Program-made: the position numbers and the translations under genes
From: Styela clava
Lineage: Eukaryota
NCBI RefSeq assembly: GCF_964204865.1
Contig: NC_135264.1
Location: 10,478,001 to 10,542,000, forward strand
Length of the DNA stretch: 64,000 nucleotides
Direction of reading: 5' to 3'
Shown: positions 6,601 to 49,744 of the stretch, piece after piece
Numbering within the stretch: position 1 is the first letter of the stretch
How the letters are laid out: each line of letters opens with the position of its first letter
The notes under the pieces: model-generated
What the model saw: the letters and a program-made list of their open reading frames with translations, nothing else
What the model was told of the DNA's origin: nothing
Database searches by the model: none

Positions 6601-6815
6601 AGTTCATATCGTTGCTGTTTTCAGTGCTGTATTTTCAGAATGATTTTACTTTTTATCATTGGATAGGGACATCATTCGTTTTCGCTGGCAGTTTAATGTA
6701 TTCGGATATTTTTAGAATAAAATCTTCTACTGTAACCACGTTTAATAACAGCAAAACATCGAAAAATGGTATTAGTAATGGGTATCACAAAAACGGTCAT
6801 ACAAAGGTGGATTGA
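3621..6815 (+). CDS. SLC35B4: UDP-xylose/UDP-GlcNAc nucleotide-sugar transporter SLC35B4
   Basis: Exons ~3621-3700, 4040-4153, 4480-4582, 4839-4958, ~5560-5727 (acceptor ambiguous) and 6321-6815. Motifs: CCTNVIFLE, GNILLFLQFSFIAIEGF, NNMALGFNIPMPLHMIFKSGSLVANM, SAGMGIYQE..KYGKHPRETLFYNHALPLP, TECTSLTVTLLITLRKFISLLFSVLYFQNDF. Confidence 0.95.
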
Positions 6816-11600: not shown

Positions 11601-14600
11601 TTCTGTGTGCTAATATGTGTTATATTACCATAAAAAACACCATAAAACATAATAAACTAGCATCACAAATCACAATGAATCTAAGCAAAACACCAATGCA
11701 ATTTAAATATTGATCATACAAGCTATGAATTAAAAATAAAATAGCACTCATAAAGGTATGATTGGGTATGATAATGTGTTTTTTTGAAAAGGCTATCTAG
11801 ATTTCTCATAGTAATCCAGAATGTTTCTCAATTTTAAAATAGTCACAGCGTATAATTTTAGTAAAATAATAGAAAATTTGATTAGGGTTATAACTATTCA
11901 AATTAGTTCACATTGATTATTATACAAAACATTTTCCAAAAAGAATTTGAGCTGAATTTTATATCAGTCCAAACATGCCCCGCATAAGTTATTTTTAATA
12001 ATATGATATTTCATTTGCAAATATACCATAGCAATTTTGAATCATCGGAATTACACTTTGACCTCCCTCCACACACACACAAGAAAAGTCTCTGCCGCAA
12101 AATTATCTCAATTATGAATTCTATCAAAAATTTTGTTTTTGAATTCTCTCTCAAGTTGGAATTACAGAGTTTTAATAATAATGGAAGAAGGTATCACTAA
12201 GTTTATTACCAAGCCTTCTTTTGATTATCAAAATTAGATTTTCTGGAGTAGAATGTAACTATTATCCACCCCCACATTGCTCGTTAAAATTGACCCCTAT
12301 ATTTGATTACCCATTGCAAATTCGTAATCAAAATTGTTCAAGTTTAAAACAAAGGGCTCTGTGTTCAATTGAAACCCTGATGAAAGTATACAGGCTGTGA
12401 AACAATGAACCAATCACAGCATATCCTTATGCACAACGTTAAAAATTGTTTAAATTTCATTAATTAAAAGTGCTGCTAAAAATATTAGCAGCCAATATAT
12501 ACATGATAAAAATTTACAACAAGAATAACGTGATTTTGACAGTGGAAAAATTAATGATTACCAGTGATTGTAAAATCAAAAAAGCAGTAAAATTCATGAG
12601 CACAAACGATATAAAAAATTGATCATCTCATTTAAATCTTCTCTTATGTTGGTCAAGCCACATAGGCAAATTTTGTGGAAATAATTTAACAACAACCATA
12701 AGTGCAATTGTATCTCCTTCAGCTGAGTGTGGTAAAAGTTGACTGTGATGAACGCCTACTTCTTTCATCAAATATTGTAATCCATTTGGTCTTCTTTCAC
12801 AAGGTTGTCTTAGTTCTCTCACACCAGTCAAGCTATCCGCACAGTAAATTTCTTTCCATATTGTTTGATCTGCCTTAACCCTATCCAAATGATTATTCAG
12901 TATTAAATAGTCAAAGGCATCTCCATTATGAGCCACAAGACAAATTGGATGTGCTTGCCTATCCAAAAATGATCTGAGAATCATTGATGTTTCATATGAA
13001 AATGGCTTTTTATTACGAACTTCTAAATTCTCTTTGTCAATTTTTGTAATTCTGGAAACTTCATTCGGAATCATGGATAAAGGATCAATGAGAATATTCA
13101 ATTTGTCTTGAACTCGAGGCACTTTTGGAAATTCACCGTATTCATGTTCCACTACCTCATTACCCAGTTCGGTAATTTGCTCGCGATCGACCGCTATCAG
13201 ACATAATTCAGTTATATTATCAGTGGTGGTGTCCAGTCCAGTTGTTTCAAGGTCCAAAAACACAAAGGTTCGAATATCATATTCATGTTCATTGGCTTGT
13301 CGGTCAGGGTCTTCATTTTGGTCAGCTGACTCTTCACCATTTTCCGTAGATTGAGTCGGAAACAGAGCTCTCGCAACTTTTTGGTCGCGAGGTAACACAT
13401 CTGAAAATTTCATGATTGATACTACGTTAATGAATTGATCTGGAATACTATCCACAAGTTGCATTAGGCATGTCGCATATTGCTCGGCTGTGTACGTCTC
13501 CATCGGCATACGCTTTTTCAAGTATCGTAGATACAAGCTTTCCATTGAGTAGTCGATCGCATCTAATGTCGTTTCATGCATTTTATGTTGATCAGGTGCA
13601 TCCAAATCTTGGCACGCAGTTGCAGTGTCTGCAATCCATAAATTTTCTTCTTCCATTGCAAAAAGTGACATTTGTAACGCAGTGATTTCGCTTTTGAGAG
13701 CTGGGAAATCCATAAGAAACCCATGATGAGCTACAAAACAAATAGGCCGGTTTTGACGCTTTAAAAATTCATTTATAAGAAGCACTGATGATCTGTCGAA
13801 TGGTTTTTTATGAGAACCTTGAATCCTTTTCCAATCAAGGTTAGATCTTGCAGCCGAGTGAAGATTCAAAGGTTTTTGGGTGTCAAAGCACAAAACTAAT
13901 TTGTCTATATATCTTTTCATTTTTCTGGTATTATTACTTGTATTATCACCATCGCCATGATCAGTCAAGTCTCTTTTGTGAACAGCAATCATAGCAACCT
14001 CAACAATCTGTGGGTTGTTCACATCATTCAAGTGTACTTTTGTAAAAATAAATGTTTTCATATCTTTTCCCTTGTCATAGCTAAGCTTCGCTTTGAGAGG
14101 TGAAGTAACACATCTTTGTGCTGCCTGCTGGGACATTACGGTAACTACCTTTTAATTTAGATTACAAATCAACTTACAGTCACAACTTATAATCAACTGA
14201 AGTTTGGAAGTATACAGATATATTCAGTATTAGAAAACAATAGTCACAATCACAAATACTAGTGTTATTCAGCGGATTGAAAAAATGGAACATTAAATAT
14301 ATTGGATTATACTATATTATACAGTTTTGCACATATATACATTTAATGTCTATACACGACATCTTAATCGTTATCATACAATTTTTAGTCCGATAATACA
14401 CAGCATTAATTTTATAAAATAGCACCGCACTAGGTGACAATCTACATAACAGTCCCGGTCATTTCGCAGCATTGCGACGTTACCAGCTAATAATAAATTA
14501 GCTGCTATGCGCTCAAACAGAGTGACATGGAAAATATGGCAGTTATCAATTTGTTATCGCCTCCAGCCTATTCATAACACGACGAAAAGCAGAACTTGCA

Positions 14601-15274: not shown

Positions 15275-18200
15275 ATGGATGAGACTGTTGTAAATATAAT
15301 AGGATTGCCTTTAACTTGTAATCCTGTCAAAATTAAAGTTCGATTTCAGAGCGAATGTGATGTTTCGATTGTTAGCGTGAAAGTGGATCAGTCCAAATCA
15401 GAAATAATACTGAACAGCAAAGAAGGTAAGCTGCTTATATAATGCAATGTAATTCGTCAGCAGAAGACTGTTGTCAGATTTTGTGCGGACGGAAGTTGTC
15501 ATGTATATAGTCTCACGCTATATTCTTATTTGTTGTTTTATAATATGGTATAGTACTTTTGAATGTGTGCCCAACGTTTTCATATTACAATTTTTGTTGT
15601 TAATATTATTTATTTATTATATTACAATCCTGAGAACATCAACAACATAAATACATTTCTGCATTTGGAAACCGATTTAATGATAACCAACAGAATGAAA
15701 ATAATTTGATTAAGCAACACTTAGTGGATCATCCTTAATAAATTTTGATAATAAATAAACCTTATACTAAATTAGTACCCCCTGCAATCCGTTAAGATCA
15801 ACTAGTATTATAATATTACAACTAGAATTATAATCATGTACTATTGTATGAATTGGTCACTTATGTTGACCAAACCACTTACTGACTTATGCTGGACAAA
15901 AAAACAATTACGCAAACTTGATCAAGAAACTTTAAAAGTTGTTTTTCATTCTAGAAAATCATCTCCATTTGATGATCAATTCAAAAGCATTTTTTTGATT
16001 CAAAGAAATGATATAATTGTCTAAACTGGACAATGCGTTTAATAGAATTTAACAATTTTGAAGCATTTCAATGCTTATTAAATTTACTGTACAAAATTAC
16101 TGTACAAAATAGATGGACCCATCAAATTGTAAACCTTGAGTGTATTTTGACTTTATTATTTACATTGAAAACAAATTTAAAATAAGTTACAACATAATAC
16201 TGAGATATATATTTGTTTATTATACAATTTTAATACAGATGCAGAAAAATTTTGCAAAAATCTTCCAAAAAGCATCAAGTTTGGGGATACAGTCCACAAT
16301 CTTGCACTATATGAAGATGAGACAGCTAGTGGTAAATATTTTATTTTTAGTCAATTATTATTCACGCTTACATAATGAGATATATGTTGGAAAACTCTTA
16401 TTCCATTATTTTAGATTCAGTTGACAGTTCTACGACAACAGAGCAAGAACTGTCACCAACTCCAGTAGCACAGAAAGAAGATGAAAATTTAACGATCCAA
16501 AATGTACAATACTGGGATACAATGGTGCCGTTACCAATATGCAAATAGTAAATCCGATTATAATCCTAAAAAAAATTACATTTTTGCTAAAAATTAAACT
16601 TGATTTTTTTTTCATTTTTAGTGGATTGTTGGTACAGTTCAAAGACGAGACTATTACCACAAAGAATGTGCATGATTATTTCAGCAGCAACCAATTTTCT
16701 TGTGGCGGACCCATAACAAGAATGCAATGCATGATTGATGGAATACTGATACTGTTTCAAGATGACAAAAGTATTTATTCAATTCATATTTTTGTCAAAT
16801 GAAAAGAATATATATATTATCCATTGTTGTAACTTGGAAGTTCGAAAATCTGTGCTTGCAGCGTTCATACTCAAAATGTGTGTAAATATAGGATGTGTAC
16901 CTTTTTATTTTACAGCTGCTGAGAAAGTTTGGAAATTCAGACCTCACCGGATCGCTAATAGACCAATCAAGATATTCTTGAAGACAATACCCACAGTTTA
17001 TCATGATAAACTCCTTTATAGAGTATGTCTGTGAAACGATTATTTTATGAATTTAGAAGTTATTTTTTCTTCATTTATTCACTTTTTTATCATATTTAGC
17101 CACAGAAGCAAAATATGTCGGACCAAGAAATTAAAACCTTATTGGTTGGAATTTCTCCGAAACAAGCTTCGCCAACGACCGTCAAAAGATACGACAGCAA
17201 CAATATTCTCATTTCTTATGAAGCGGATGTAGGTTAGTATTCAGGTCACCTGCAATCAAATCTCCCCAACACTGGTAGTTGACGATTTAGTTGCAGTGAT
17301 GGAAAATTAAAATTCGGAAGTGTTTGTTTTTTACATGCTGACTCCATCTATCCCATTTGAAGAGGGATATTGGAAGATATCCTAGATCTAAAACAGTGGT
17401 TCTTAAACTTTTTTAGCTGCGCCCCCTTTTTAGAATTTGATAAGTGTCGCACCCCCACTCCAAAAATAACTAGCAAACAATAAGCTACAAATAACAGATA
17501 GTAAGGCCGAATGTATGTTTTATTCAAAAAAAAACAGTTGATAAATTCGTGGATAGAACGTAAATATTGAAAATAAACGAATGTAAATATCCAAAATAAA
17601 GGAATGTAGATATCCGGAATAAGGAAGGCAAGATCAAGTCTAACAAATATTATTGTTTTTCATTCGATTCACGCCCCCTCAAAAAAATTGTCTACGCCCA
17701 CCGTTTGAGAGCCACCAGTCTAGAAATTCGTAACAAAAGATTTATTATAATATCTATAGAATAATAAGCAAAGCTTTTTTCATGAACTCTAAGTAGTCAC
17801 AGGGAAAGGGCAAGCGTAAATTTTACTACGAAGTATTGTACAAGACTGTTCAGTAGCTACATCTTTATTGATTTCTCCATTTTCCGCGTTCAAATATTTA
17901 TTTATCGATACAGGACATGATGAATTCCAGAAAATCATGTTAGAATTCAAAAAACGTCTCAATGAAAACGTGAGTTATTAAAAAAATTGGAAATTTAGTT
18001 TTTTTATTATTTCAAATACCGATACTCATTTATGAAATTTATTTTAGATTTCTCAATTGCCCAAAACTGATTGCCTAAGAGTAAAAGGTTTTCCATCTGA
18101 TATTTCTGATGAAGAAATAATTATTTTATTCGAAAACAAACAGAGAACTGGAGGTGGACCAGTAACGAAAATTCAACATTTAGACATCGATGTCGTACTT

Positions 18201-21200
18201 GTATACTTTGCATCGTATGAAGGTTAGCATATAGCAATTTATAGGATTTTGCCGAGAGGAATTCTGCCCTAGGGATTAGATTTTATTGTATTTTTTGAAG
18301 GGGGGGGGGGGGGGCTTTTTATTTGCATATAGTATTAGTAGTATTGTAAACTTTTTGATTATGATTATAATACCTATTTATACACATATCATAAACTATT
18401 TATATTGTAATACATATGCAAAAATGCGTATCACTATATAATGATTCGGTATTAAAGACTTGGTAACAATGAAAATGGAGTTTCTCTGCATAGTGGTAGA
18501 TGAATGAAGAGTTTTAAAACATGAAAAAGGAAGTATGTATAATAAATAAAAAAACAGGTTGTAGAACACTGGGGTATGTGATGGATGTGGGGCATCTTTA
18601 ATGCCAGTATGCTATGCACAGAAATTACTGAATGTCATCAGACCCCCGTGCTAAAAATTACTTTATTGTATTCTCTATTTTTACTACTAGATGCGATGGG
18701 GGTCATTAATAAATTCAAAGGAAAAACATTACCAGTTTTTGATACTTTGTTGAAGATAAGTAAATACTTTCACTTCATGTATGACAAGAATAATGATGAC
18801 ATTGCTGAAGACAGTGGTAGTACCAGCGATTATAGCATCACATCTACACTTTTGGAAGGCAAATTCAGGTTGGCATGTTAGAATAGAATAGGGTTTTTAT
18901 CTTTATTCAAGGAAAGCTGATAAGACAGCTTAATCATATGATGAACTAAAGCGTCGCACTGAGTTATCAGGGCATGTTGAGTTTGGAAATAGTTGACGAA
19001 TTTCTTGTGGTGAACTTGATGGTGAAGAAGCCTGTTCCAACCAGTGGTTATGTGAACCACCCCATGGCAGCCAGGAAGGAGTTCAGCAATCTCCTCACAC
19101 ATAATTATTTGCCACAGGATGCGACCAGCGCTGCGCAATCAGAGAGGGGGCCAAAATCGTATTTTTAATATTTAGCATGGCGCAACATGCAATGTGTTCA
19201 GTACTACTTGATATTAAAAGTAATAATTCAAATTTTTTCGTTTGAAATTTTCATTTCTTAGATGGCTTGTCGACTGTAAAATGACAGATAAAATAAGAAC
19301 TCAGTACAAAGTTAAAATTGTGTTTAATGAACGAGATAAAACCATCACATATATTGGGGACAAAGATGAGGTTGCAAAAGTGCAAAAAGCTGTTACAAAA
19401 ATGCTGAAGGTAGGTTTTTTTAGATGGCTGAACTTTATATAAGTAAATATTCAATGTTCAATCTTAATTTTCGTAATATATCAAAATTTAAATCAGGTTG
19501 CGGAATTGGAATTTGGCTTATTTTCTTTGAAATCTGAGTTGTATTTCAAACTCAAACAGCAGCATATTAAACAAGGCTTGCATATGCTGAAGTTTTCATT
19601 ATTTTATCCGCATTTGATTTTTTCAACAAAAGTTTGAAGCAATTGTCGGAGTACAATTTTTATACATCCTGGAGTCGGAGTCAAAATTCAACCCAGATTC
19701 GGAGCCAACTTTATTTTCAAATCAGAATCAGGAGTCGACTGTGAACATTCTCTCATTCAATGGCGCTAATTTACATATATTGCAAGGGTGGCCAACCTGC
19801 TATCAGGCGCAGTCGACTTTTTTAAAACATGCAGCGCTTCATGAGGCTGGTTCAAGTCATTTTTCTGAGATATGTCATCAACATAAGACGCGATCGACTA
19901 CTTGAGATGTGGCGAATCGACGTGTTGGCCACCCTTGATATGTTGTATAGTTATATGTCTCATTTATCACAGTATAACGTTTTTTTAACATTCAGTTGAA
20001 ATGTTTTATTTTTGTATATTTTTAGAATGTAACAAGAAAAGTATTGGACTATGTTGAAAAAGATTTTGTAACATTTTTACTTGGTGCAAAATCGAATCCT
20101 ATCATATGCAAATTTGTTTTTGAGAAGCTACAACAACAAAACATTAATGGTTTGTATTATTTTGCATCAATGTATCTTACACAAATATGGAAACTAGTTA
20201 TAATGTCACAATATATTTTATAGAATGATAAAAATATATCATGACATCACAGTACATTTATATTATGGCTAATATCTCAAATTTTCATTATAAAATAGCC
20301 CCCATCCAGCCCCCTCAAAGAAATCATGGGTTCGTCACTGCATAAGATATATAACTAAATAATGATATTTGTAATATTTGCAACAAAATAACTGTTAATA
20401 ATCATAAGAACATTTTTGTGAAATTTGTTTTAGCTATTTTGTTGGTTGAAGGAGACATTCCATTTTTATGGGGATACAAAAATGATTGTGAATCTGCATT
20501 GAATGAAATCAGTAGAAGAATATTATCTGTTCGTAACGTTCCTGTTCCACCAAATGTTCACGAAACTGAATCATGGAAAACAATCACTGATCTGATCTCA
20601 AAAGGCCACATCAGTGTGGCTTCACATGTAAGGGGTTTAGAAGTAATATTTCATTTGATTTTTCCCCATCAAGTAGGAAAGCCTAATCCGGCGGCCACAG
20701 TTTATATTTTAGAAAGCGCTCACATGTGCGAAAATACATAATGTTTTTTTTCTTGTCAATAAACCTTTATCGTTCTACCTGCTGTCTTCATTTCTGCAAG
20801 GCTAAGCAATAGCCACATTCTCTTTTCTTGCCCTCCACGCATGTTGATACTACTTTTTTTGTGTGACCCAGTAAGGTGTCTGAAGGTTGTTATATGGTCC
20901 ACCTGCGAAATATGTTCCCTGGTTTGAAGGATAGAAAATCTTTCTAATTCAGCATATTCACCCTAATCCCCCTATGGGTAAACAGACTTTTGACCCATGC
21001 AAGCCTGAGTGCAGAATACATTGGATATGTCTTCAATGGAAGTGTAGTATTTCTTTATTCTAATCAATGGTAGTTTAAATTTCCATTGCGACAAAACAAT
21101 ATAATCCTTCATATTCGGTATAAAACCTATATGCATCGGACGATTGATAATTCTCTTCGAAAGCACGTCAATTTTTACGTAAATAATAATTGGATTACTG

Positions 21201-24200
21201 GACTCCTTGTCGCTGTAGGGTGGTTCACGTAACCGCGGGTTACAACTTCGTTCACCACCAAGTCTATGCATCTAAAAATAAATAACCGGCAAACTAATCC
21301 TACAGCTGACATGGCCTGGTAAACAGACGAGATGTCGTGGTACACTATATGATTAGGCCTGTTGTGTTGGTTTCCCTCTCTTACAGGGTAAATATTGTGA
21401 GGGTGAGTGTTGTATAAGAATTCTAACCAAAGGTCTTTATGCTGTATATTATGTTATCTATATCTAAGGTAAAGAAAAGTGGCTTGCAACCTTCCAGGCA
21501 ACAGTTCAAATCTTGCTGCTATTTTTAAACCTACTTCTCAATTCAATACTATTCTTCAATACAAATCTCACCTGACTTTTATCTTTTCTATAATGAGCAA
21601 TTTACTTAAGGTTACTCATGTGAGAATTGTTGGATTCCATGATTCAATAGCTCATGCTCAAGAATTATTAAAAGAATCTCTCATTGACGAAGATTCAGAA
21701 GACTTCATTGATCTAAAATATGAAACTGGAATAATGAAATACCTTCTTCAATACTGTGATTTCAATAGCTATTGTCAAAAAAATTCAGTAGAAATTGTAA
21801 AAGCAGATGATAACGTTATAAGGCTGAAAGGTGATCCCAAAGTTCTAAAAATGAGTAAGTTTTTTATATTTTGTTCTCTAAATATGTTATGCCAGCATCA
21901 AGCATAAAATCCTAATCGCATAAAAAAATCATAATCCGACAATTTATGTTTGAAAAGCCGCTCACATGAGTGAAAATACCCCGTGATCTTTCGCTGTTTT
22001 GACCTTTTGTTGTGTACAATACCTAGTGTACAAATTTAAAAAAAAGCTAAATTTTTTTTGTGTGATCCAGCTATTCTGAAGTTGTCTTGTTTCAAAGACA
22101 AAATTTTGTTTTGATTTTAAAACACCCAATGTTTTGAAAATGCCCAGGCCTACTATCGACGCATCTTACCATTTTAAAAAGAATATTGGAAATTATTGAC
22201 ATTAAATTATGACATGGAAAAGTTTTGTAACATATGCACATTTAAGCAATGCAATACATGAGCTTGTTTTTTTTCTGTTCATAACGATCAAGCATGGCTG
22301 AATGTCTGATATAACCTATATTCTTCTTTATCAGCCATAAATTTGACAGATTTCATTGTTTTATGTCAGCATGGAGCAGATTTGATTTTTATGAAACACA
22401 ATGATATTTCGTGACATACCGTACTCTAAATTAGCTTACTACCCACAGATTGGCAATTATAGTTAAATACCTTAATAGAAACACTGAACTTGATTATTAA
22501 ATTTGTAGTCAAGGCCACAATAAAGACCACAATAGCCAAGGTTGTGCGCAAAGAAAAACAGATTAAAAAATTTGGAATTGTCGATTTTGTGCAAAGTGCT
22601 GAAGGAAAAGCAATTATAGAAGAAACGAGTAAAGCAAAGAAGACTGTAATACTCTGTAACAGATGCATTCAACCTCCGCAAAATGTGGTAAGAAAGTTGA
22701 TATTCACTGTACCGTTATTTGTTCATTACTTCAGACACTCAATGTCAATATCAAAAACATAAAAAAAAATTTGTATATTATCACGACACATGCGCAATGA
22801 CAGCAAAATATTAGAATAATTTAATGGATGTCATATTATACGAATACATTCTATAGGAGTGTTTCCAAGAATTAAATAAAAAACAGCAAAGTTTTGGATC
22901 AAATATTGTCAATGTAGTACTCAAAAAAATTGTAAAAATGATAGCTTTTTGACAAACGCCTTCATATTCAAATACTGAATATTTGAAATCAATAAGTCCA
23001 GTAGTTTTTCAGCTATTTTTTCATAACAATAACTCAACAAAATGATCCAATAATTGAAGTTCATGATTGTATCCTATATTTCATAGAATATGTCATCAGA
23101 CGTAGCATCAGTGTCCAGTCAAGTAAAATCAAGCACCAACATTGGAGGCATCAAAATTAGAGTTAAACAAGGAGATATAACAGAAGAAGATAGTGATGCA
23201 ATTGTCATTTGTGCTGGTGTCACTTTTAATATTCCGGGTCTGCATTCAGAAATCTCATTTTATATTCATTTGTATCCTGTATAATGGCTTGAGTAATCGT
23301 TTTGGATATCTTATCTTGTAGTCAGATTTGACTTGATTGTGGTACATCGCGCTGAGCGTCAGCAATATGCTCGCCACCACATCTCAAATGACAGCTGCGT
23401 TGGTTCAAATCTTAGATAATTATGTGCGAGAGAATGCTGGACTCCTTTCCATGGTAGAGTAGTTCATATAACCATTGGTACATGCGTCTGAAACAAATAA
23501 CTGGCTAACTATTCCCATGCCCCATATGGACTGGTAACGAGGCCGTGGTTGGACATATGATTAAGCCGTGTTTTTGGCTTTCCTCTCCGCTAAGATAAAT
23601 ATGTAAATCTTATCCTATCCTTTTTGTCCTTTCAATTATGAATCGCAAAAATGAGAAGAAAAAACAACTCACTGATTGCTGTCCGTTCAAAATAAAGTTA
23701 CTTTCTAACATACCAGTGGCAGCTTGTACAAAGCCTTGTTTGGGGGGAAACAGATAGAAAGAGAAAGAGCATAAACTAATTTCACACACGACTTGGATTA
23801 GTAAATAGACGACAAACCATCTTCGAGCATTATTTTTTCCATTAAATTCCTATCATAATTTCATTCTACATTTGCATGGTATTCAGGCAAAATGGCAGAA
23901 GCTGTCTTTGATAAAGGTGGTGGCAAAATACAGCAAGAATTAAAGTCATCAATATCGGAAACATTAAGAGTAACAAGCAGTGGAAATCTTCATTGTAAAA
24001 GAATTTTCCATATCAAAACACCAATCATTGAATCAAATATTTCTTTGTCTTTATGGAGCGCGTTACAAGAAGCAGAAAAACAACGTTGCGGATTGATTTC
24101 TGTACCTGCTTTGGGCATAGGTTTGTGATCATGTCATTTTTTACACAATAGAATACATAACTAATGACTTTATTCCAATTTTAACTTTGTACAGGTATTA

Positions 24201-27200
24201 TTCAAACTGAGAAGATTGCCAGTCTTATGATGGAAACGTTTTATGCTTTTGCAAAGGATCCCAAAACACAACATGTGAAATTTATCAACTTAGTTGTTTT
24301 TGATCAATCCCACTTGTATAGTTTTGAAAAGGCATTGGGAGAAATTGAAGCTAAAGATTTTCCCCAGGGGGCAGCAGGTAAATGGAAGTTGATGATACTT
24401 ACTCATATACATATTACCGGTATGTATGAGTATATTTTGTCCTCGTAATCAGCTTAACACAGCAGTTCCCAAACGGTGCGTGGCGAAAATTAACAGAATT
24501 GTGTTGAACATAACTAAAATATGATTGAATATTCAGCCTATTGGAATTATTATAAATGTTTTTTATTCTAAATGCTGTGTATATGGATCGATAAATTTGT
24601 TTTATCTTTCCATGTCATTTACTTTCTTTACCTCAGTCTCTGCCTCTATTGTCATGTAAAATAGAGATAGACACTACTTGCTGCAATTTCGTGAACTGCA
24701 GTATATTCATCAGATGGACCAAGTTTGGCGAACATGAGTGATTATTTCAGCAATCCAAAGAAAAATCAGGCAGAGATGAAAACAGTGTTGTCCAAAACGA
24801 ATAGTATATTCGAAAACATTCGAATATCAAAGTATTCGAATACCTTTTTGGCTGATTTTCGAATAATTTCGAATAGTAGCCACTCTTCGCCGTCAGCGAG
24901 GTGTTTCACTTCTAAGTGAAATCTTAGAACGGTTTTTGGCGCTTTGTAACGTATCGTAATCATGATGAAATAGAGTCAGCACTTTAATTGTTCGTGATAT
25001 TTTGTGCGAGCGTGCGCCTCATACTGTTGCACGATTGGCATTGCCGCTATTACCCTGCAAGGTTTCTAATTTATACATTGATTTCCTTCACGTCAAAAAA
25101 TTTAAAATCATTTGAAACCGCAATTGTTACAATACCCAATAAATTAGTCAGAATTATTAGGAAAAATATACTTCATACTTTTTTCGCTTTTTGGCAACCG
25201 ATTTTGATAATGATAGTTAGAAGTATCGACTTTTTACTAGAATAATTTTCTGTTGCGCAAAATATTTAGATAGCAGCAATTAAAATGCCATATTAATTTA
25301 ATTCTGTTTAACATAACCTGTGATTGCGTCAACTTACGAAAAAATAAAAGCATTGCTATCGTATATTAAAATATCACGGCAATCTGTGGACATAAAATGT
25401 GTGGAAACTACCCATTATAATTAATTTTTGATTCGAAGTTTTGTACCTACTGAAATATGAAAAGCAATACTACAATATCAGGCAATCTGTGGACATAAAA
25501 TGTCTGGTAACTAGGCAGGTTGTAGATAACAGTTACCGTATTTCATTGTTTATTGTATGCAATTGATTCATGTCATAAAATATGCTTTTTACTTGAATTT
25601 ATTTTTGAATGTATTCGAAATTTGATATTCGAAAATAATAATTTCGAATGTATTCGAAATAGTGAACTATTCGGTATTGGCCATCCCTGGATGAGAAAGA
25701 AGAGTTAACTTTTTGATTTCATTCTTGAGGCCTACATGTTTACAAACTTTAAAAGACATAGAATACACATTAATTATCACAAAATTGAGTTTTATTCAAA
25801 AGCAGCAAATTTTTCGTGTAGGAGCGTCATGAGTTTTTTTTCCCTAATAATATGGCGTCGCACAGACAAAAAATTAGGAATCGCTGACTTGGCAGATGAT
25901 GAAATAATTGATAAAAATATATAAATAAAAACTGATTACAAGATTGTTTCAAACATACAGAATTGAAATAAAAACGTATCGCCGAAATAATTGTTCACTC
26001 ACATAAAAATATACGACACACACACATATATAACCGCAAGATATAATGAAATATAAAACCAAAAAATCTAAAGAATAAAAAAAGTTTGGCCACGCCATGT
26101 TAATCATTTTAATCTACATCACCTGATGAGCAGAATCAATTTTTTATAAATTTGGAAAAGAGACTTCTGAGAAATATGGAATACAAATGTATGTGAAATC
26201 ACTTTAGGTGAATACTGTTAAAAATATCATAAAACATATTATATTTTGTTGCAGGTGTATCTAATGGAACTGCGGCAAAAATGCCTGATTTTGTACCGAA
26301 ATACCCTGCTCAAGGAGAAAAAAGTGTTTCGGTTATGCTAGGTTGTCTGACAGTTTCTATTAGGAAGGGAGATATTACAGAAGAGAAGAATGATGCGATT
26401 GTAAATAGCACTGGGTCAGACTTTGATTTGTCCAAAGGTGAGAATAGGGCAGAGGTGTCCGACCCATTTTGGGGTCCATGTCTCTAGACCTTGAGCTGCA
26501 AGTTAAGTTGAGTCAAGAGCCATCCAGGTCAATCAAAGTCCCAGCAAATTCGTAAAGCCCTGAAGTGAGTCACTACTCTTTCAAGTCTCTCTTGCAGTTA
26601 GTCGAATCGGAGTCCACACGGAGTTGATATGGGTCACATCAAGTATTTAAAATGATGTCTTGGGTCGACCCGACCCACTCTTCAACACTCTGGCTACAAC
26701 ATAGGGTCATTTGCAGTTATGCCTATTTTACCTTTTTTCAAATAACTTGAGATTTTAATTTTCTACCCTCAACTCTTTTACACCAATTTAAGGTCTTGTT
26801 TCAACTGCAATTATCAGAAAAGGCGGAAAAAGAATTCAAGAAGAAGTACGTCGTATACGTGGGTCAGATATACGCGCAACATCAGGGGGAAAACTTCCAT
26901 GTAAAAAAATTATACATGTTTACACACCAACAACTAGAGAACTCTTTGCCAGCATAATAGGTGATGTCCTAGAAATCGCAGATTCGGAAAAATGTACTTC
27001 TATTTCGTTTCCAGCAATGGGAACAGGTGGGTAGTTTACAATATTATTTATTTGAGTCATCAATAGTGACAGTATTTAACGAACACACAAAGCTTGGTGT
27101 ACTGTTTTTGAGTATTAGAAATGTGTTTAACTTATTTACTATATACAATCAGGTGGAAGAGGATTTTTGCAATTTTTTCAGTACAGTTATTATTTATGCA

Positions 27201-30200
27201 GGCAACCTGAACAGATCTGGAAATGATATTGCCCATACAATGATAAAAGCATTTTCGAAGTTTTCAAAAAAGAATCCGCAGACAACAAATCTCAAAGTGG
27301 TTGATATTGTTATCTATGATCAACTCCAGCTTCCATTTTTTGAAAAAGCTTTAATGGAACAACAGGAAAGTGAAGCAAAACAAGGTACTTCTATTAGTTT
27401 GTTAGTTCACAAATTTTGATAATCCATGGCCCCTAACGAAGATTTCTAAACAATTGTGGCCCTCTTCCCTTCTACAAAATAGTTTTGCTTTCAATGTACT
27501 CTCATCAAAAATTACATGTGCCACGTTAAGTAATAATAAAAGACGAAGACAGAAGCAAAAAATAGTACATTATGTCCGCCATCTTCATTATTCATACATT
27601 ATTGTAATTTCATTTACCAAGGTAATAAGAGTGACAAGAGTTGGCTGCAAACTGCAACATCATTTATTGGGGAAAAGGCATCATCAGTTTCATCACTCTT
27701 TTCCAAAGGTAAATTTGCAATACTCTGGCCTATATTGTGAAATCTTTCAAACAAATGCTAGTTATTAGAAAATTTAAACTCCTTTGTCAGATGATATATA
27801 TCATAGCAATGTTGATAGTACACTCTTCAGATGTTTTTTATTTACTACTTACAGTAAGCAAGCGTGGTTTTGGATATTCAGAAAGTTGTTCTCGTTGTTT
27901 AAAGGTACTTCTTATACTTACCACAGCAAGTTTGATTGGGGATGACATTCACACTCAAAACACATTACCACCTGCTATTCTTGAAAGTTATTAGACCTTT
28001 TCCAGTTACCGTATGCCCCTCCCCCCACTGATATTACCCTGTCACGTTTTAAGATAACAAATTAGTAATTATCTAGTTGGGGGTTGGGGAATGATTTCAA
28101 ATTTTAATTACCATCGCAATTTGCATTCTCAGCCCTAACCCAAACCACATAACTGGGTTATTTATATATTAGGGGGGTAAATTTGGTGGATGAACTTTTC
28201 AATCCTTGATCGTGGTGGACTGAACCATTCATTCTTCTTTATTGAGTTTTCGAAGTAGATCATGTGAACGGGCAGACTCACTCATAAATGCAATTCAACT
28301 TTTTTGTTTTCAGCAATATTATATGATGAACCTTTGCAAAAAAATGTTATTGATCAAAATTGTATTGAACTGCAATTTTATTCTTCAAGTAAAGACAAAA
28401 TTGAGCAGGTAGGGAAGAAAAATTTTTTTTTTTCATTTTGCCCAGAAATTCTCAAAATTTAACTAGATATGTATATTATTCTTCATTTCAGGCAGTACAA
28501 GATATACGACAAAAAATTGATAAATGTTATTTGAACACACCTATTGTTGATGACCAACTTAAATATTTGGATCAGAATGCTAATCGAGATCTTGATGCAA
28601 TAGAACGTAGAAATAGAGTCCTGCTGTCAAGGTAAAATCTTTACACTTTTTTAGCGTATCAGAAGGCATGTCATAAATGTCAAAATGTAAATATATCAAA
28701 AAATTTTGATGAAATACGATTTACCACGTTTATTAAAATATTATATTGCAACAAGATTGAAAATTTACTAGCTTGTTGCAGCAATACCCCGAAATAGGAA
28801 CGTTGATGTCGGTGCAGAAGTTAGATTGTTTTTAACTTTCAAAATATCGTTTATTCAATGTGATATAGAAATATTACTGGTAAGTTTAACCGCACTCATA
28901 TTTCACCATTTCAATATTGTTTATTAATTCTACTAAGACTCGTAATTTGGCTTGTGACACAAAAGAGAAGCAACCTGATTTGACTTCAAATATGCTGTTA
29001 CTCAAACTTGACCTGTGAGTCAGTTGGCCCTATGACTTTACTTTACTCGTGATACAGAGTTTGGCGACTTGCTTACAGAGTGTCTCACATTATCAGATAT
29101 GATAAAGTCTTGCTATGTTTTATAATATGCTTTTGTGGTTCTCTCTCCTTAGGTCTGATTATAAAATTTCTGTGGAAGGACTGAATTCAAATGTGTTGAA
29201 TGCTGTTGAAGATATTAAGCGTTTGCTCAAAAAGTCTCAGCCAAGATCATTTGTACGACCAAATCTATCAATCTACACTTGGCAATATAGAAAGTCAGAT
29301 GGAGAATGGGAATCATTTGAATCGAAAATACAACAAGAATTAGCAGAGTTATATCAAGTTTGTATTCTTTTTTCTTTTTGTTTTACCTAGTATTTTTTGA
29401 ACTAAAAATATTTGAAATCAAGTTTAATATACCTTTGAGTGGTTAATTAAGTATTTTTTTCAACATTAGGGCAGGATTTACATATTCATCCTGGGGGAGA
29501 GGGAAGTCGATAAGACTGCTTTATCATTTGGCTAACCACAGTCTCTCGTCGGCTACCAGCAGTCCATGCTGGGTATGGGATTAGTTTACCCAGTTGTTTG
29601 CTTCAAATGCATGTCCCTTTACTATGTCGCTTAAAGAACGAATATTTCATATTCGAATTAATGACATCTTGTGCCTCAAAGTTTTTTAATCATTTGTCTT
29701 AAACCTCAATATTTGGGATTGTTTGAAGCTCTTTTTATTTTTATATAGATCAACCCCTACTTTAGAGGCATTAAAATAATTGATGGTAAGAAATACAATG
29801 TAGATATTCTAATGAATGCTTTGGATGGACAAGAAATAAGAAGAAAGGTTACAAATGGTAATATAGATATAGTATGGCTAAATAACAAAGCTTTTTTAAA
29901 ACATTTGAGCAGCATTCAATCAATGATACACATTACCTAGGATATGATATCCGTTTTTTCTCCTCCAAGGGGAAATTTCAGGTGAGATGTTGAGAATGTG
30001 TGAAAGTGGTTTATAAATATGAATAAATTTTAGCCAACTAGTGGTTTTCTGAACCACCCTGTGATATTAAGGAGTTCTGTGATTCTTTCATGCATAAATA
30101 TTCCTTGTGTGGGGTCAAAGATGCGGTGGCGAGCGTTTTCCTAACGCTTAGCACGATGAGCCACACCGCTGCGCCTGATAGTCAATAGCTCATTCCAAAA

Positions 30201-31451
30201 TTATCAAGATTGAATATAATGTTGGTTAAACAAGGTCAAGTGTTCTCGAGGGCGTGCCAATTTTTTTTGCTGTGCAAGATGAGTTTCTGATAACGATGCC
30301 CCCTATACCTTCAAAAATATTTCAGGGGATAAACAAATTTTAAAAGTGAAATGTTTATATTATTAATTACATCATCAAACTAAGAAACAAAATCATATGT
30401 GTAAAAAGATCAAACTCATTTATCAACCAAAACAGATTGGAATATTGTTTTGAATTGTACCTTTTCTTTTTTGCGTAATTAATGTTAAAATGCTCCCACT
30501 GCATAGAATACTGTACTTTTGTTAGTTATGAATGAAAAATGTTGAGTGTTTTGACAATCCATAATTTTTAATCGAAAATCCCCAATCCTTCTTGCTAATT
30601 TCCTAGTATTTGATAAGAACAAGATATTAATATTTTTACAGAATGGATTCACAACAGACAACCTTCTCAATTTGGGAATAACAGTAGTGATGTAAGTATT
30701 TTATATGATTAGTTTTACAGAAATTAAAAGTAGGAGTTTGGTTGTACCAGGCTAAGTTATTTTACCATATTTCTGGGATATGTTGACATAATTAGACTGA
30801 CCAATACATCAATATTGGCTTGGCTTCGCTGTGTGGCGCATTGGGCTAAGCATTAGGAATATGCTCGTCACCGCACCTCTGATTACAGGTTGGAATCCCA
30901 TGTGGGAATAGTTATGTGCAAGAGGATTACTGGACTCCTCGCTGCCCTAGGGTGGTTCACGTAACCGCTGGGGTCAAGGCCACCATCAAGTCCATGCTCC
31001 CGAAAACTAATAACTGGCTAATTAATCTCATACCCGACATGAACTGATAACCAGGCGAGAGGCCATGATTTGACATATGATTAAGCCCCCAGGTTTAATA
31101 TGTAAATCCAAACCTATCCTGATATTGTCAATTCCCAGTTACTGATTATCCAAATAAAGTAATACATGTTCCATATATATGACCCTCAATCCAATCAAAA
31201 TGACCATTCTTTATTAAGTCCACCAATCTGAGATGAACAACTGGCTAAATATTTTTATATGAACTCGAATTTGGGGTTCACAATATTATATAGACATATT
31301 ATCAGCCTGAATATATTTTGAATTATTTTTTTTGCAACTTGAAATTCAACAACATATGGCGATGAGTTAAAATAAATACTTTGTTTACTTTTGTTTTTGA
31401 TATTCTTAGGCTGGTGCTTCAAATGTATCGTCAAACAAGAAAGCATTTTAG
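15275..31451 (+). CDS. PARP14-like multidomain protein (3-4 RRM, KH-like repeats, 2 Macro, KH, WWE), ~1330 aa, apparently lacking the ART/PARP catalytic domain
   Basis: About 27 phase-compatible GT-AG exons (approx.): 15275-15425, 16239-16331, 16415-16547, 16622-16770, 16916-17021, 17100-17232, 17914-17969, 18049-18223, 18691-18868, 19262-19410, 20026-20149, 20434-20627, 21611-21854, 22479-22687, 23087-23237, 23887-24120, 24195-24377, 26255-26437, 26793-27026, 27202-27384, 27622-27708, 28314-28408, 28492-28631, 29153-29357, 29749-29858, 30642-30691, 31410-31451. PARP14-type RRM: IYFENKQRTGGGPV. Macro 1: GDITEEDSDAIV..TSSGNLHCKRIFH..ISVPALGIG. Macro 2: GDITEEKNDAIVN..TSGGKLPCKKIIH..SISFPAMGTG. 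WWE: WQYRKSDGEWESF..YNVD..IRR. The last two exons are less certain. Confidence 0.87.
17394..17718. mobile_element. hAT (Charlie-like) MITE, degenerate
   Basis: Starts CAGTGGTTCTTAAACTT and ends GTTTGAGAGCCACCAG. Internal CGCCCCC motifs. TCTA-centred, imperfect TSD. Confidence 0.65.
18881..19135 (-). mobile_element. tRNA-derived SINE copy, degenerate
   Basis: Blocks GGAAAGCTGATAAGACAGCTTAATCATATG, ACTTGATGGTGAAGAAGCC and GGAGTTCAGCAATCTCCTCACACATAA resemble the family. Confidence 0.7.
19783..19937. mobile_element. hAT MITE
   Basis: TIRs CAAGGGTGGCCAAC / GTTGGCCACCCTTG. 8-bp TSD ATATATTG/ATATGTTG. Internal GATCGAC motifs. Confidence 0.85.
21190..21395 (+). mobile_element. SINE copy (3' part), degenerate
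   Basis: GGATTACTGGACTCCTTGTCGCTGTAGGGTGGTTCACGTAACCGC...CACCACCAAGTCTATGC. Confidence 0.7.
23335..23620 (+). mobile_element. SINE copy, near full length, degenerate
   Basis: Head ATATGCTCGCCACC..GGTTCAAATC. Tail ATAAATATGTAAATCTTATCCTATCC. Confidence 0.75.
24460..25886. mobile_element. Nested hAT-type MITEs: outer 24460-25886, inner 24783-25689
   Basis: Outer TIR CAGCAGTTCCCAA / TTAGGAATCGCTG. Inner TIR CAGTGTTGTCCAA / TTGGCCATCCCTG with TSD GATGAAAA/GATGAGAA and subterminal TTCGAA arrays like those of the 286-1354 element. Confidence 0.75.
29468..30174 (-). mobile_element. Two SINE fragments (~29468-29612 and ~29937-30174) on either side of the WWE exon
   Basis: AGGATTTACATATTCATCCTGGGGGAGAGGGAAGTCGATAAGAC (tail end) and GCGGTGGCGAGCGTTTTCCTAACGCTTAGCACGATGAGCCACACCGC (head end). 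Confidence 0.75.
30826..31120 (+). mobile_element. SINE copy
   Basis: Head GTGTGGCGCATTGGGCTAAGCATTAGGAATATGCTCG..GGTTGGAATCCCATG. Tail ATATGTAAATCCAAACCTATCC. Confidence 0.85.
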
Positions 31452-32219
31452 TTCATGAAGATCAATATTCATGTTTTATGATAAAGCTGAAATTTGACGC
31501 TGTTTGGGCCACAATGTCTCCATAATCGAATGTTATATTCCTGATATTTGTACCGTAATTATTATTGTGAGCGTGATGATGTAATCACGAACTGAACACT
31601 GTATATAAAAATATATAATTTACTATAGTAGAAGTAAGGGGTACCTTTTAGCTTTTACCCATCAACTGTTTTATAACAAAGATATCATGTTAAGTGGGAC
31701 TTCGTACACTTGATTATTTGCACTTCAAACATTTCTTTTTTGTTTTCGTTACAATCTTCAATAAATGATATTAAACAATTAACAATGTGTCTTAATACTA
31801 AAAATTGATCAGATGAACCAGTGATTAGGATTTATGCAGTGTCGGGCCTAGGCTACTATAGTTGCACCGCGCTTTATCCAGGCGCAAATTATTACTACAT
31901 TCAACCATTACAAATCCATGTATAAATGTGATGATATACTTGCATTACGTCGCCACATGTAAGACTTGTGAAATTATTTTTACCCTGGCAGAGGCTGAAT
32001 TCAAGGGAGTTTTGAATATTTTCCGATAAAACTATTTGTAACTCGTAACATTGGGTTTTATATTTGAATGACAATCTACTAAATTGTAGATTCTACACGG
32101 CATCGAGGCATCAAAAAGTCATCCACCATTCATATGATTTAATCAAATACAGTTAGTTCCGTCTTGGTTCCGTCATATTCGTTAACTGTCCAAGAATGCC
32201 TCCATATTATGAAAGCGTG

Positions 32220-32400
32220 ATCGATTGGTATTCTACGTCACTTCTGAATTTGTTATTGAGTACAAAAGGATTCAGTTTTGCATAAAATGTAGGCGTGAGA
32301 AATATATTCTCCGATCATATTTGAATTATGCTCGAAATTTTAAGGCCAGTAATCACGTGATTATTTGTTTACTATAGCTGACAGACGACGAGTGAGTAGC
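32220..32400 (+). promoter_or_regulatory. Putative SLC8B1 promoter: inverted CCAAT, CRE-like TACGTCA, 14-bp palindrome TAATCACGTGATTA (E-box)
   Basis: GATTGG ~32223, TACGTCAC ~32234 and TAATCACGTGATTA 32350-32363, all within ~260 bp of the ATG. Motif matches only. Confidence 0.45.
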
Positions 32401-32484
32401 GCGTTGTTTTGTAGGTTGCTGGTAATTCGAGTGCTTATTTTCAACGATGTAATTGCGCTTATTTCGTGTAAAAACTCGGGAGTA

Positions 32485-35400
32485 ATGGAAAAATATGTAT
32501 TTGTTGTGTTGTTGACATGTTGGTCTAAATTTTCACTTGTGAATGGAGAGGGGAATGTCTCTGTTTCGGACGACTCCGGTGATGTTGAGGTAAGTCTGTA
32601 GATAAGAGGATCGAAATTCAGAACTTATTTTGCCCAGATTTCATCACCTTGGTGTTATATCATACAACCATAAGGCCATAAGAAGCTGCATCAGCTAGTT
32701 TTATATATTACCAAGCAACTAAATTGACAGAATTAACACATATTGATCAGCTTGTTATTATGCTGCCTGATTCAGTGATTGCTCTTTCACTTTTAGATAC
32801 AAGTGTGGCGAAATACTACACAAAAATTTATATAGGATAGGATTTACATATTTATCCCGGGGGAGATGAAAGCCGATAAGACGGCTTATCCATATGGCGA
32901 ACCACGGCCTCTCGTCCGGTTACCATTCCAAGTCGGGTATGGGATTAGATTTCTGTATTGTTTGTTTTCGGAAGCATGGACTTGGTGGTGGAGGAAGCCG
33001 TAACCGACCAGCGATTACGTGAACCACCCAACGACGGCGAGGAGTCCAGCAATCCTCTCGCACATAACCATCCCTGCATGGGATTCGAACCTGCGAACCC
33101 ACGCAGAGTAGTTAGAGGTGCGGTGGCGAGCGTATTCCTAACGCTTAGCCCGTTGAGCCACACCGCCGCGCCGCCCGTTGAGCCACACTCGACTTAACCC
33201 AGTACCGTAACCCTACAAACGAATTGAGCTAGATTCTCTCTCATATCATACTGAAATTCATTTTATCCATACATCAAATTTATGTTAAGTCCTTGGTGCG
33301 CTTTAAATCAGTAAAATTAAACGTGTATACAGGTATATGCTTTTTGTTGTTTTTTAGTGTCGAGAATATCATTCCATCAAAAATTCATCAGATATTTGCA
33401 ATTTTGTGAATTCTACTGATGACTGTAAAATGGATGAAGGTTTCTTTGATTATATATTATATGCTTTGTGTGACGTGAAACCTAATTTACTGCCTGCAGT
33501 TTATGTCTTATATGTAAGTATATTAGTTATTTCACATCTGGAAGTTGAGAAATTAACTGGGAATAGATTTGATAAGCTTACAATTTTTCGAATAATTTGA
33601 CAAAATTGATTTGATTCATACAATTTATCTGACATAAAGTTTGCATATAGAATGTTATGTTAAGTTGCTGCTTTGAAAATATTGCGTTTCTCCACAATTA
33701 ATAGACTAATCGTTTAAAATTTTTAGTACTCATAAATGTTTTAAGTCGCTAGTTTGTATAGTTCATCTATTCGTATCAACAAAATAGAAAAATGAAAAAA
33801 GTTTGACATCTGGTATTTCAAGTTATAAATTTTTTAAATTAATATCTTGAATTATTAGTTCTCTTTAACCGTTTTAAAAGGAATAACCTTTCGTTTTGAC
33901 CATATTATTTAGAAGTCTTCTTTTTCTCAGGTAAATTTATTGCATTCATTTATATATAACGGCAGCAATCCACCATATTTGATATAATATTCAATGTTGT
34001 TTTGTTTTAAATTTCCAGATTATCTGGCTACTTTACCTTTTTATTGCTCTGGGAACAACAGCTGAGAGTTTGTGAGTGAATTTTACATTGATGAATTACA
34101 TTTTTATATGCACTGCTGCAGTGTATTTTAAACATTTGATCATTAATTACTGTTCAAAAGAAGATACAATCATCTGATAGGCAATAATATAGGCTCCAAC
34201 CATTTCCCTTTTTTAAGACAAGCTGCTTAGTTCACTATTGCAAAATAGAAGGAGGTTAATACTTAACAGTCTTATGGAATGAAATGAGAATGCTAAGAAT
34301 TGCTTACCTTTAAGCTTATAGTGAGTCATGGTCTCTCCTCCACGTACCAGTTCAGGTCACATCGGTTCACAATAGTTATACTGTTGTTCGTTTTATAAGC
34401 ATGTTTCTGGTTCTGAAATATGAAAATAGAATTTCACACAGTGATTTTATATATCTTTTTAAAAGTATTCAGAAAATAGCTAAATAAAATGTTCTTTTTA
34501 CAGTTTTTGTCCGTCTTTGGAGTTTATTGCCAACAACTTGAAGCTGAGCCAAAATATAGCAATATCCTTGAAAAATATCAAAATTACTTTTATAATTTTT
34601 ATTTTTTGACAAGTAGAATGAAAATAATGTATAAAGAGCTTATTATTCTTGCTAGTTCACTTTATGTTAACCTCGGCTTTTTATACAAATTTCGAAACAA
34701 AATAATTTTATTTCTTTAATTTTCAATAATAATCACGGTATAACAGTTGTTGCTTTCGGTAACGGAGCTCCAGATATCTTCAGTGCAATTGCAGCTTTCA
34801 CTAATTCAAAGCCAAGCTCTTCTGGTGTAGCCATAGGAGCTTTATTGGGTGAGTACCATTCAAACTACTAGCTTTCATTAGCCTAAAAATTGTTTATAAA
34901 ATTTACTATTTTTGAAAAATAGTTGACTGTGAATTGTGAGACGAAACGACAAATTTTTATAAATTCATCGTTTTAGGTCTGCAATTTATTTTCAAAAATT
35001 TTCTTGAATTCTAGATATTTTATTCTGCTTGTTAAATTTTTTTTAGACCAGCAGTTCACACTATCTATTTTGAATCTTATTAAGGTGCTGGAATATTTGT
35101 TACTACTGTGGTAGCTGGAGCCGTTGCAATCACCAAACCATTTGAATTAGCAAAACGTCCGTTTCTACGAGATGTCACTTTCTATCTTGCTACTGTATTT
35201 TGGACATTTTGTTTGCTTTATAATGGGAAGATTGATTTACCTAATTCCATAGGTAAGATTGAGCTGTTAGTTAATTATTATCAATGGAGTGCTGTTATAA
35301 GAGCGTACAAAAAGCATACATGTGTATCATTTAATTAAATTATTGTTAGGATGTATATGGTATTTTTATAGTGGTATATATAGCCTACTACAGGGCCAGA

Positions 35401-49566: not shown

Positions 49567-49744
49567 TTACTGTCTGTAGTCTTTATTTCATTATTTGAGC
49601 AAAGACAGGAATATACCACCCACAGACCCCATATCTATATCAAGCTTCTGATGGTACGGTAGTGTCTATATTATTAGTTTTTTTTTTTTTATGCTTATGC
49701 AACACAGCTAATAATTAGCCCTAATTAAATGCTTTTTGACAATT

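Follow-up and report, generated by a model that had tools for sequence, protein, structure and literature searches.

Does a PARP14-like gene of the ascidian Styela clava end after its WWE domain, without the ADP-ribosyltransferase (ART) domain, and what might such a protein do? The question is raised by a locus on contig NC_135264.1 (assembly GCF_964204865.1), analyzed here within a stretch of 64,000 nucleotides (positions 10,478,001 to 10,542,000 of the forward strand; hereafter, the window, whose own numbering is used for the gene). An initial annotation, made from the letters alone, had described the gene as stopping after WWE with no ART domain, and our analysis confirmed this.

A PARP14-like gene that ends after WWE

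Reading the window fixed the splice sites of a 27-exon coding region from an ATG at 15275, the translation of which (with exon 12 starting at 20434) equals RefSeq XP_077976500.1 letter for letter over 1319 amino acids (aa); the length first estimated, about 1330 aa, was too high. RefSeq titles this record (P0003 in our protein set; hereafter, the window protein) [quoted passage not shown] and holds a 1285-aa isoform X2 without exon 25. The gene is already in the annotation without ART, though under an uninformative name. Of the two WWE exons initially proposed, the first (29153-29357) stood, and the second runs from 29749 to 29857 rather than to 29858. Both short exons predicted beyond them were recovered, the last with its TAG at 31449-31451, as was the AATAAA signal, which together with ATTAAA at 31770 makes up all polyadenylation-type signals between 31410 and 32484.

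None of the listed runs is registered as RNA; runs X1 to X5 were treated as RNA because their contigs skip GT..AG introns, and run X12 was of DNA type. The GT..AG joint 30691>31410, which leads from exon 26 to the stop-bearing exon and not to a PARP exon, was present in contigs of all five RNA-type runs from three studies (X1, X2, X3, and X5, four of four runs, in a first contig comparison; X5, X1, and X4, three of three RNA-type runs, in a second) and was not seen in the contigs of X12. The gene is expressed, as spliced contigs reach the stop-bearing exon in each of the five runs, and with its open frame and spliced transcript it shows neither the broken frame nor the missing transcript of a pseudogene. 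One X5 contig of 1624 nucleotides (nt) covers, in spliced form, the stretch between the second macro domain and 31782, which lies 22 nt beyond AATAAA; this end is consistent with a poly(A) site, though contigs cannot prove the end of an RNA. The same contig carries exon 25 extended to about 29981, with a stop inside the extension. The joint 29857>30642 is based on the RefSeq model, an X4 contig ending at 29857, and 51 to 53 letters on the exon-26 side of the next joint. An odd joint, 29287>30641, came from X1, its shorter side covering 30 letters; with a donor at 29293, the product would be 1244 aa long and lack ART. Translation of five tails (RefSeq X1 and X2, the extended exon 25, a skipped exon 26, and the possible donor at 29293) gave proteins of 1244 to 1327 aa, all without ART, which bears out the earlier statement that skipping the 50-nt exon does not open a PARP tail.

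Neither an HG[TSC] nor a G.G.YF motif occurred in any of the six frames of 29858-32484, in agreement with the absence of HGT and YG.G.YFA-type motifs reported in the initial annotation. A search profile built from 10 ART domains reached no more than 1.9 bits in 29001-33000 and gave nothing in the read-through frames. Its best score was 6.4 bits across the window and 9.0 bits (E 0.45) over the 164 kb around the gene; as a positive control, the 32 best-scoring open reading frames of paralogue loci scored 47 to 145 bits. Genome-wide, none of the 37 matches to PF00644 and none of the 22 matches to a native ART exon lay on the gene's chromosome, and a Pfam scan of the window protein found no PF00644, the C-terminal domain of the macro-PARPs. 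No ART exon was present within 50 kb of the window and none was found on the chromosome, which argues against a dual-isoform gene of the ZAP-S kind. Candidate remnants were rejected: neither profile nor motif search found one in the last introns or the flanks, and the 50-nt exon, with a faint by-eye likeness to an ART start, had no ART-profile score and is not claimed as such.

Might ART exons instead sit in an assembly gap or elsewhere, making the gene an artefact of assembly or annotation? Repeats do occupy the last two introns (smaller interspersed ones lie at 30114-30176 and 30250-30342), and the tiling by DNA contigs is incomplete: among the X12 contigs listed, long ones with zero or one difference cover most of 27326-32700 in order, with no pieces for about 29426-29474 and 30666-31483. 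X12 represents the window haplotype almost exactly, so that it tests the assembly and is not an independent sample. Collapse of the assembly is nevertheless largely refuted by the RNA joints in all five runs, the absence of any N in the window, and a separate S. clava record, XP_039256973.1 (P0006; see below), that ends at the same place, and we regard an artefact as very improbable.

Upstream of its end, the protein keeps the PARP14 order of RRM/KH, macro, macro, KH8, WWE, followed by a short tail and stop (Table 1). The PARP14-type RRM and KH parts, with KH8 ahead of WWE, were recognized above the Pfam cut-offs (PF23085 and PF23254), and two PF01661 stretches form the tandem macro domains; further RRM/KH-like segments lie in aa 1-690, including a weak KH-like match in exon 10. 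An AlphaFold2 model of aa 703-1319 (mean predicted local distance difference test [pLDDT] score, 74) contains two macro folds, a KH domain, a WWE-like unit with a strand-helix-strands pattern, and a disordered tail. Foldseek searches with its single domains matched PARP14 macro 3 and PARP15 macro 2 best, with E values down to 1e-14.

Table 1. Features of the ART-less gene, in window coordinates
Feature	Position	Strand	Basis or remark
ART-less PARP14-like coding region, 27 exons	15275..31451	+	Identical to XP_077976500.1; many joints in RNA contigs
PARP14-type third RRM, aa 281-340, exons 8-9	18066..18713	+	PF23085, 38.7 bits, above cut-off
Macro domain A, aa 706-866, macro-3 type, pocket partly degenerate	23138..24343	+	Pfam, tree, secondary structure of model
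Macro domain B, aa 905-1070, macro-3 type, no loop-2 aromatic	26335..27362	+	PDB matches, tree, Foldseek
KH8-like domain, aa 1154-1212	28537..29234	+	PF23254, 28.1 bits, cut-off 27
WWE domain, exons 24-25, aa 1226-1288	29274..29853	+	PF02825, E 0.0024, below cut-off; model pLDDT 74-88
Alternative extension of exon 25, in-frame stop, 1316-aa product without ART	29858..29981	+	X5 contig through to 29978
Exon 26, 50 nt	30642..30691	+	Position of first ART exon in ART-bearing sister genes, after phase-1 intron
Interspersed repeat, last intron	30820..31087	.	Up to 17 matches in 377 kb of DNA; very high depth in DNA-type run X12
Terminal exon: 13 codons, stop 31449-31451, 3' untranslated region, AATAAA 31760	31410..31782	+	Joint 30691>31410; end of X5 contig

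Ancestry of the gene and type of its macro domains

The closest genomic relatives were found on another chromosome, contig C17. There, genes A (9229488-9253736) and B (9276182-9300283), both on the minus strand, each encode three macro-3-type macro domains and three ART exons. Gene C (9309410-9335763, also minus), pieced together from profile matches, has two macro domains, KH8, WWE, a short tail, a stop, and AATAAA signals, with no ART match above 2.5 bits before gene B; it sits head-to-tail before the ART-bearing pair and is 37% identical to the window protein. In genes A and B, ART begins in a new exon past a phase-1 intron behind WWE. In gene C and the window gene, that phase-1 intron is followed by a short unrelated exon, and the phases of the terminal introns are identical. 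The break after WWE coincides with the intron that, in the sister genes, stands between WWE and ART. Plus-strand fragments of one more copy, scattered over 9258161-9265429, were also seen on C17.

A tree of the non-macro regions (510 columns, 12 rows) placed the window gene in an ART-less clade with gene C and XP_039256973.1 (SH-aLRT 99.7, UFBoot 99); genes A and B were the nearest ART-bearing paralogues, with weak support (92/73). Long branches could inflate the grouping of the ART-less clade. The clade is nested among ascidian PARP14-like proteins, and with the conserved intron phases this indicates descent from PARP14-like genes. The simplest reading is that the ART exons were lost once, long ago, and that the ART-less gene would then have been duplicated. 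In local alignments, the window protein was 22 to 29% identical to ART-bearing relatives, and the S. clava genome holds 21 near-full ART last exons. A PARP14-like protein of Ciona intestinalis, P0014 (XP_078493539.1), was rejected as a relative of this kind, since it lies outside the ART-less clade. Its 1411 aa end after a macro-1-type domain, without PF00644; the model may be truncated, or it may represent a form that became ART-less independently.

In PARP14, macro 1 alone is the hydrolase, while macros 2 and 3 are readers (PMC10499325, PMC10221186, PMC13224862; here as below, literature is cited from excerpts). The hydrolase signature consists of Asn or Ser and Gly flanking loop 1 and of a hydrophobic and an aromatic residue in loop 2 (PMC10221186). 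Two trees, of 34 and 36 macro domains (those of P0011 and P0016 in the first, left out of the second), both grouped the two window macros with macro 3. That side of the tree (98/94) held all four macros of the window protein and XP_039256973.1, all eight from the C17 genes, and macro 3 of vertebrates, starfish, and lancelet. Identity to macro 3 of three S. clava paralogues was 28 to 37% for macro A and 35 to 42% for macro B, compared with 20 to 25% and 24 to 30%, respectively, to their macros 1 and 2. Both window macros lack the loop-2 aromatic residue of the hydrolases; rather than the macro-PARP set of three macros, 1-2-3, with a hydrolase-type macro 1, the gene has two of macro-3 type. In each of them, the middle exon is 234 nt long and the last one 183 nt, as expected of tandem duplication. 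Macro B keeps the adenine- and phosphate-binding motifs GDIT, VNS, the loop-1 Gly, and GTG as in PARP14 macro 3 and PARP15 macro 2, which were also its best sequence matches in the PDB. Judged by tree and motifs, then, the hydrolase-type macro 1, the eraser, is also missing from the gene, and macro B is a predicted ADP-ribose reader, its motifs being partly lost in macro A.

A PARP14-family gene without ART and without a hydrolase-type macro would, in our view, fairly likely work as a noncatalytic reader or adaptor. The initial annotation had proposed an intact reader-only protein. The gene is indeed intact, transcribed, and ART-less, and the missing hydrolase-type macro 1 lends the reader-only idea more weight. 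Its further point, a WWE that binds ADP-ribose, became doubtful, since the WWE match lies below the cut-off and poly(ADP-ribose) (PAR) binding is reported as undetected for the WWE of PARP14.

A second ART-less form and the function of the protein

XP_039256973.1, of 1285 aa and also without ART, matches the window protein at 92% identity in aa 1-455 and at 47% in aa 456-1319. By exon, identity was 92 to 98% in exons 1 to 6 and 8, 78 to 86% in exons 7, 9, and 10, and 27 to 67% after these. Its matches in the genome (36 of 86 candidates scored) were best at the window locus along its length; an 82-aa piece matched this locus only, at 39%, and no second copy was present within 50 kb of the window. 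The protein cluster of XP_077976500.1 contained no protein of the XP_039 series, and four other pairs between the XP_039 and XP_077 series were 92.5 to 99.8% identical; we infer that the two series represent two annotated assemblies. From the lack of a separate locus, we give about an even chance to this form being a deeply diverged allele of the window gene; otherwise it would be a tandem paralogue that this haplotype lacks, or else a chimeric model. Hyper-divergent defence haplotypes are known in other animals. The depth of X12 contigs, which is no measure of copy number, was about 190 to 270 over 27.3 to 30.7 kb (27326-30665) and 400 to 510 beyond 31.4 kb (31484-32700). The lower values over the back half might mean a divergent second haplotype and are not counted as evidence; a second X12 contig does lie on exon 23.

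Is the gene maintained, or is it a relic, still transcribed but under relaxed selection, left over from birth-and-death turnover in a large family and slowly decaying since it lost its enzyme? Such decay would fit the degenerate macro A, the weak WWE, the several frame-changing tail isoforms, the frequent duplication of PARP14-like genes (PMC4245714), and a ratio of nonsynonymous to synonymous polymorphism (pN/pS) not significantly below 1. It fits poorly with 27 exons in one open frame and with the absence of any stop among the 43 coding variants scored in the RNA-contig rows listed (39 and 4 from two contig comparisons). Moreover, two full-length ART-less forms at 47% identity and a third gene at 37% have kept open exons and conserved columns. 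Between the window protein and XP_039256973.1, macro B was identical at 46 of 53 family-conserved columns versus 54 of 116 others (p 6e-7), and macro A at 37 of 52 versus 51 of 112 (p 0.0025), a concentration that points to long-term constraint on the ART-less proteins. Long-term retention is supported by the sister ART-less gene and the second divergent form, and we consider a relic distinctly unlikely.

Another reading holds that the protein is a decoy or dominant-negative regulator that would soak up pathogen antagonists of active PARP14-like paralogues, or occupy their partners or marked targets, its back half being under diversifying or balancing selection. The drop in identity between the two forms behind aa 455, with no separate locus for the second, speaks for this reading, as do many amino-acid variants, four of them clustered in macro B of one run; macro-PARPs have also been reported to be under strong positive selection (PMC10221186). 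High amino-acid variation fits relaxed constraint too, however, and the allelism is inferred from absence; we rate this reading as possible but on the unlikely side. It and the reader/adaptor reading are not mutually exclusive, and the latter is favoured. Broader still, and tentative, is the idea of an ascidian PARP14 pseudo-enzyme subfamily without writer or eraser, serving as ADP-ribose sensors or decoys in innate immunity, in which the window locus would carry, after a common front end, one or the other of two back halves of ancient origin (47% identical), both maintained by balancing selection in the style of the major histocompatibility complex.

Under the favoured reader/adaptor reading, repeats of macro 3 would have taken the place of macros 1 and 2 in an ascidian PARP14 lineage (in which genes A and B on C17 keep ART), and one branch would then have lost the three ART exons, giving rise to the window gene and gene C. 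Mono-ADP-ribose, set in trans by the roughly 20 paralogues with ART, would be bound by macro B. RNA or partner proteins would be held by the RRM/KH region, and Deltex-type ubiquitin ligases might find a docking site on KH8-WWE. The protein would thereby gather marked targets and neither add nor remove marks. One role of human PARP14 depends on KH and not on ART, and the protein binds DTX3L (PMC11080071). As a separate observation, the genome contains 52 matches to the Deltex DTC domain, 38 of them in one array at 2.6 to 5.6 Mb of contig C5, which is a large expansion of Deltex-type ligase genes, and smaller groups on C19 and C6.

Several points weigh against this reading. In a model of the human proteins, KH2 of DTX3L contacts mainly ART, with KH8 and WWE only supportive (PMC11251020), so that Deltex docking may have been lost with the domain. 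The WWE of the window protein scored 18.7 bits against a Pfam cut-off of 21.1 (that of the second form is above it, at 27.2 bits), and a review (PMC13224862) reports that PAR binding was not detected for PARP14's own WWE; the links to Deltex and to ADP-ribose through WWE are thus weak. In macro A the Asn ahead of loop 1 is gone, and so is the loop-1 Gly in macro A of XP_039256973.1; branches within the macro-3 group had weak support (85-91), and in comparison with structures of human PARP14, macro B aligned well to macro 2 also. Listed coding variants comprised 12 synonymous and 31 nonsynonymous changes (pN/pS 0.68, p 0.17; 0.81 for aa 456-1319), values of which the former fits relaxed constraint or diversifying selection equally well. 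Finally, protein searches returned no orthologue outside S. clava, a result that counts for little in lineage-restricted, fast-evolving genes: the full-length search gave 14 matches among 5106 candidates, the WWE exons searched against 1.8 billion representatives found only their own protein and five unrelated-looking WWE-repeat matches, and a search with shorter pieces found one weak macro match.

Neighbouring genes and known systems

The downstream gene, named SLC8B1 in the initial annotation, contains a Na/Ca-exchanger exon (PF01699). On the other side, a single-frame gene on the minus strand (12631-14151) encodes a 507-aa exonuclease (PF00929), by eye with two exonuclease-like halves and possibly TREX-like; it stands head-to-head with the PARP14-like gene, about 1.1 kb apart, and an X3 contig reaches 1016 letters upstream of 15101. 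Elsewhere in the window, all on the plus strand, are exons of a UAA-family nucleotide-sugar transporter (5455-6812), WASH complex subunit 4 in one uninterrupted frame of 1176 aa (49715-53242), and a TIR-domain exon (PF13676; 55584-55931). About 37 to 22 kb before the window start, open frames of 841, 875, and 1089 aa occur with transposase-like frames, probably as parts of a large mobile element.

PARP-less isoforms (ZAP-S), an inactive ART (PARP9), loss of macro activity, and frequent duplication of PARP14-like genes are already known. Within the literature covered, outside which most subscription papers fell, no title or abstract start described an ART-less PARP14-like gene from an ascidian or another invertebrate, nor one without either enzyme. 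Genes of this kind would escape surveys in which the PARP domain defines a macro-PARP. What PARP14 does independently of its enzymes is difficult to tell apart from its activities as writer and eraser; a natural gene with scaffold and reader parts only, in at least two copies, makes the question testable in a chordate close to vertebrates. If XP_039256973.1 is indeed an allele, alleles of an intracellular ADP-ribose sensor would here have diverged to an extreme that is rarely seen.

Human PARP14 (ARTD8/BAL2) and invertebrate PARP14-like proteins share with the window protein the order RRM/KH, tandem macros, KH8, and WWE; the window gene differs in having no ART and two rather than three macros, both of macro-3 type, with no hydrolase macro 1. 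Genes A and B on C17 resemble it in having only macro-3-type macros and a phase-1 intron after WWE, but they keep three macros and three ART exons. ZAP-S, PARP13's short isoform, is functional without the PARP domain (PMC8066025); it and short PARP12 are isoforms of zinc-finger genes that keep this domain, whereas the window gene itself has lost it. PARP9 and PARP15 are two-macro derivatives of PARP14, the ART of PARP9 being described as inactive and PARP15 as without a hydrolase macro (PMC10221186, PMC13224862); unlike the window gene, both keep ART, PARP9 keeps the hydrolase macro 1, and they are specific to vertebrates or mammals. DTX3L is likewise an RRM and KH scaffold and a hub (PMC13224862), but it has a RING-DTC and no macro or WWE. 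Without ART, the window gene falls outside the macro-PARPs, and it is most aptly classed as a variant that descends from them.

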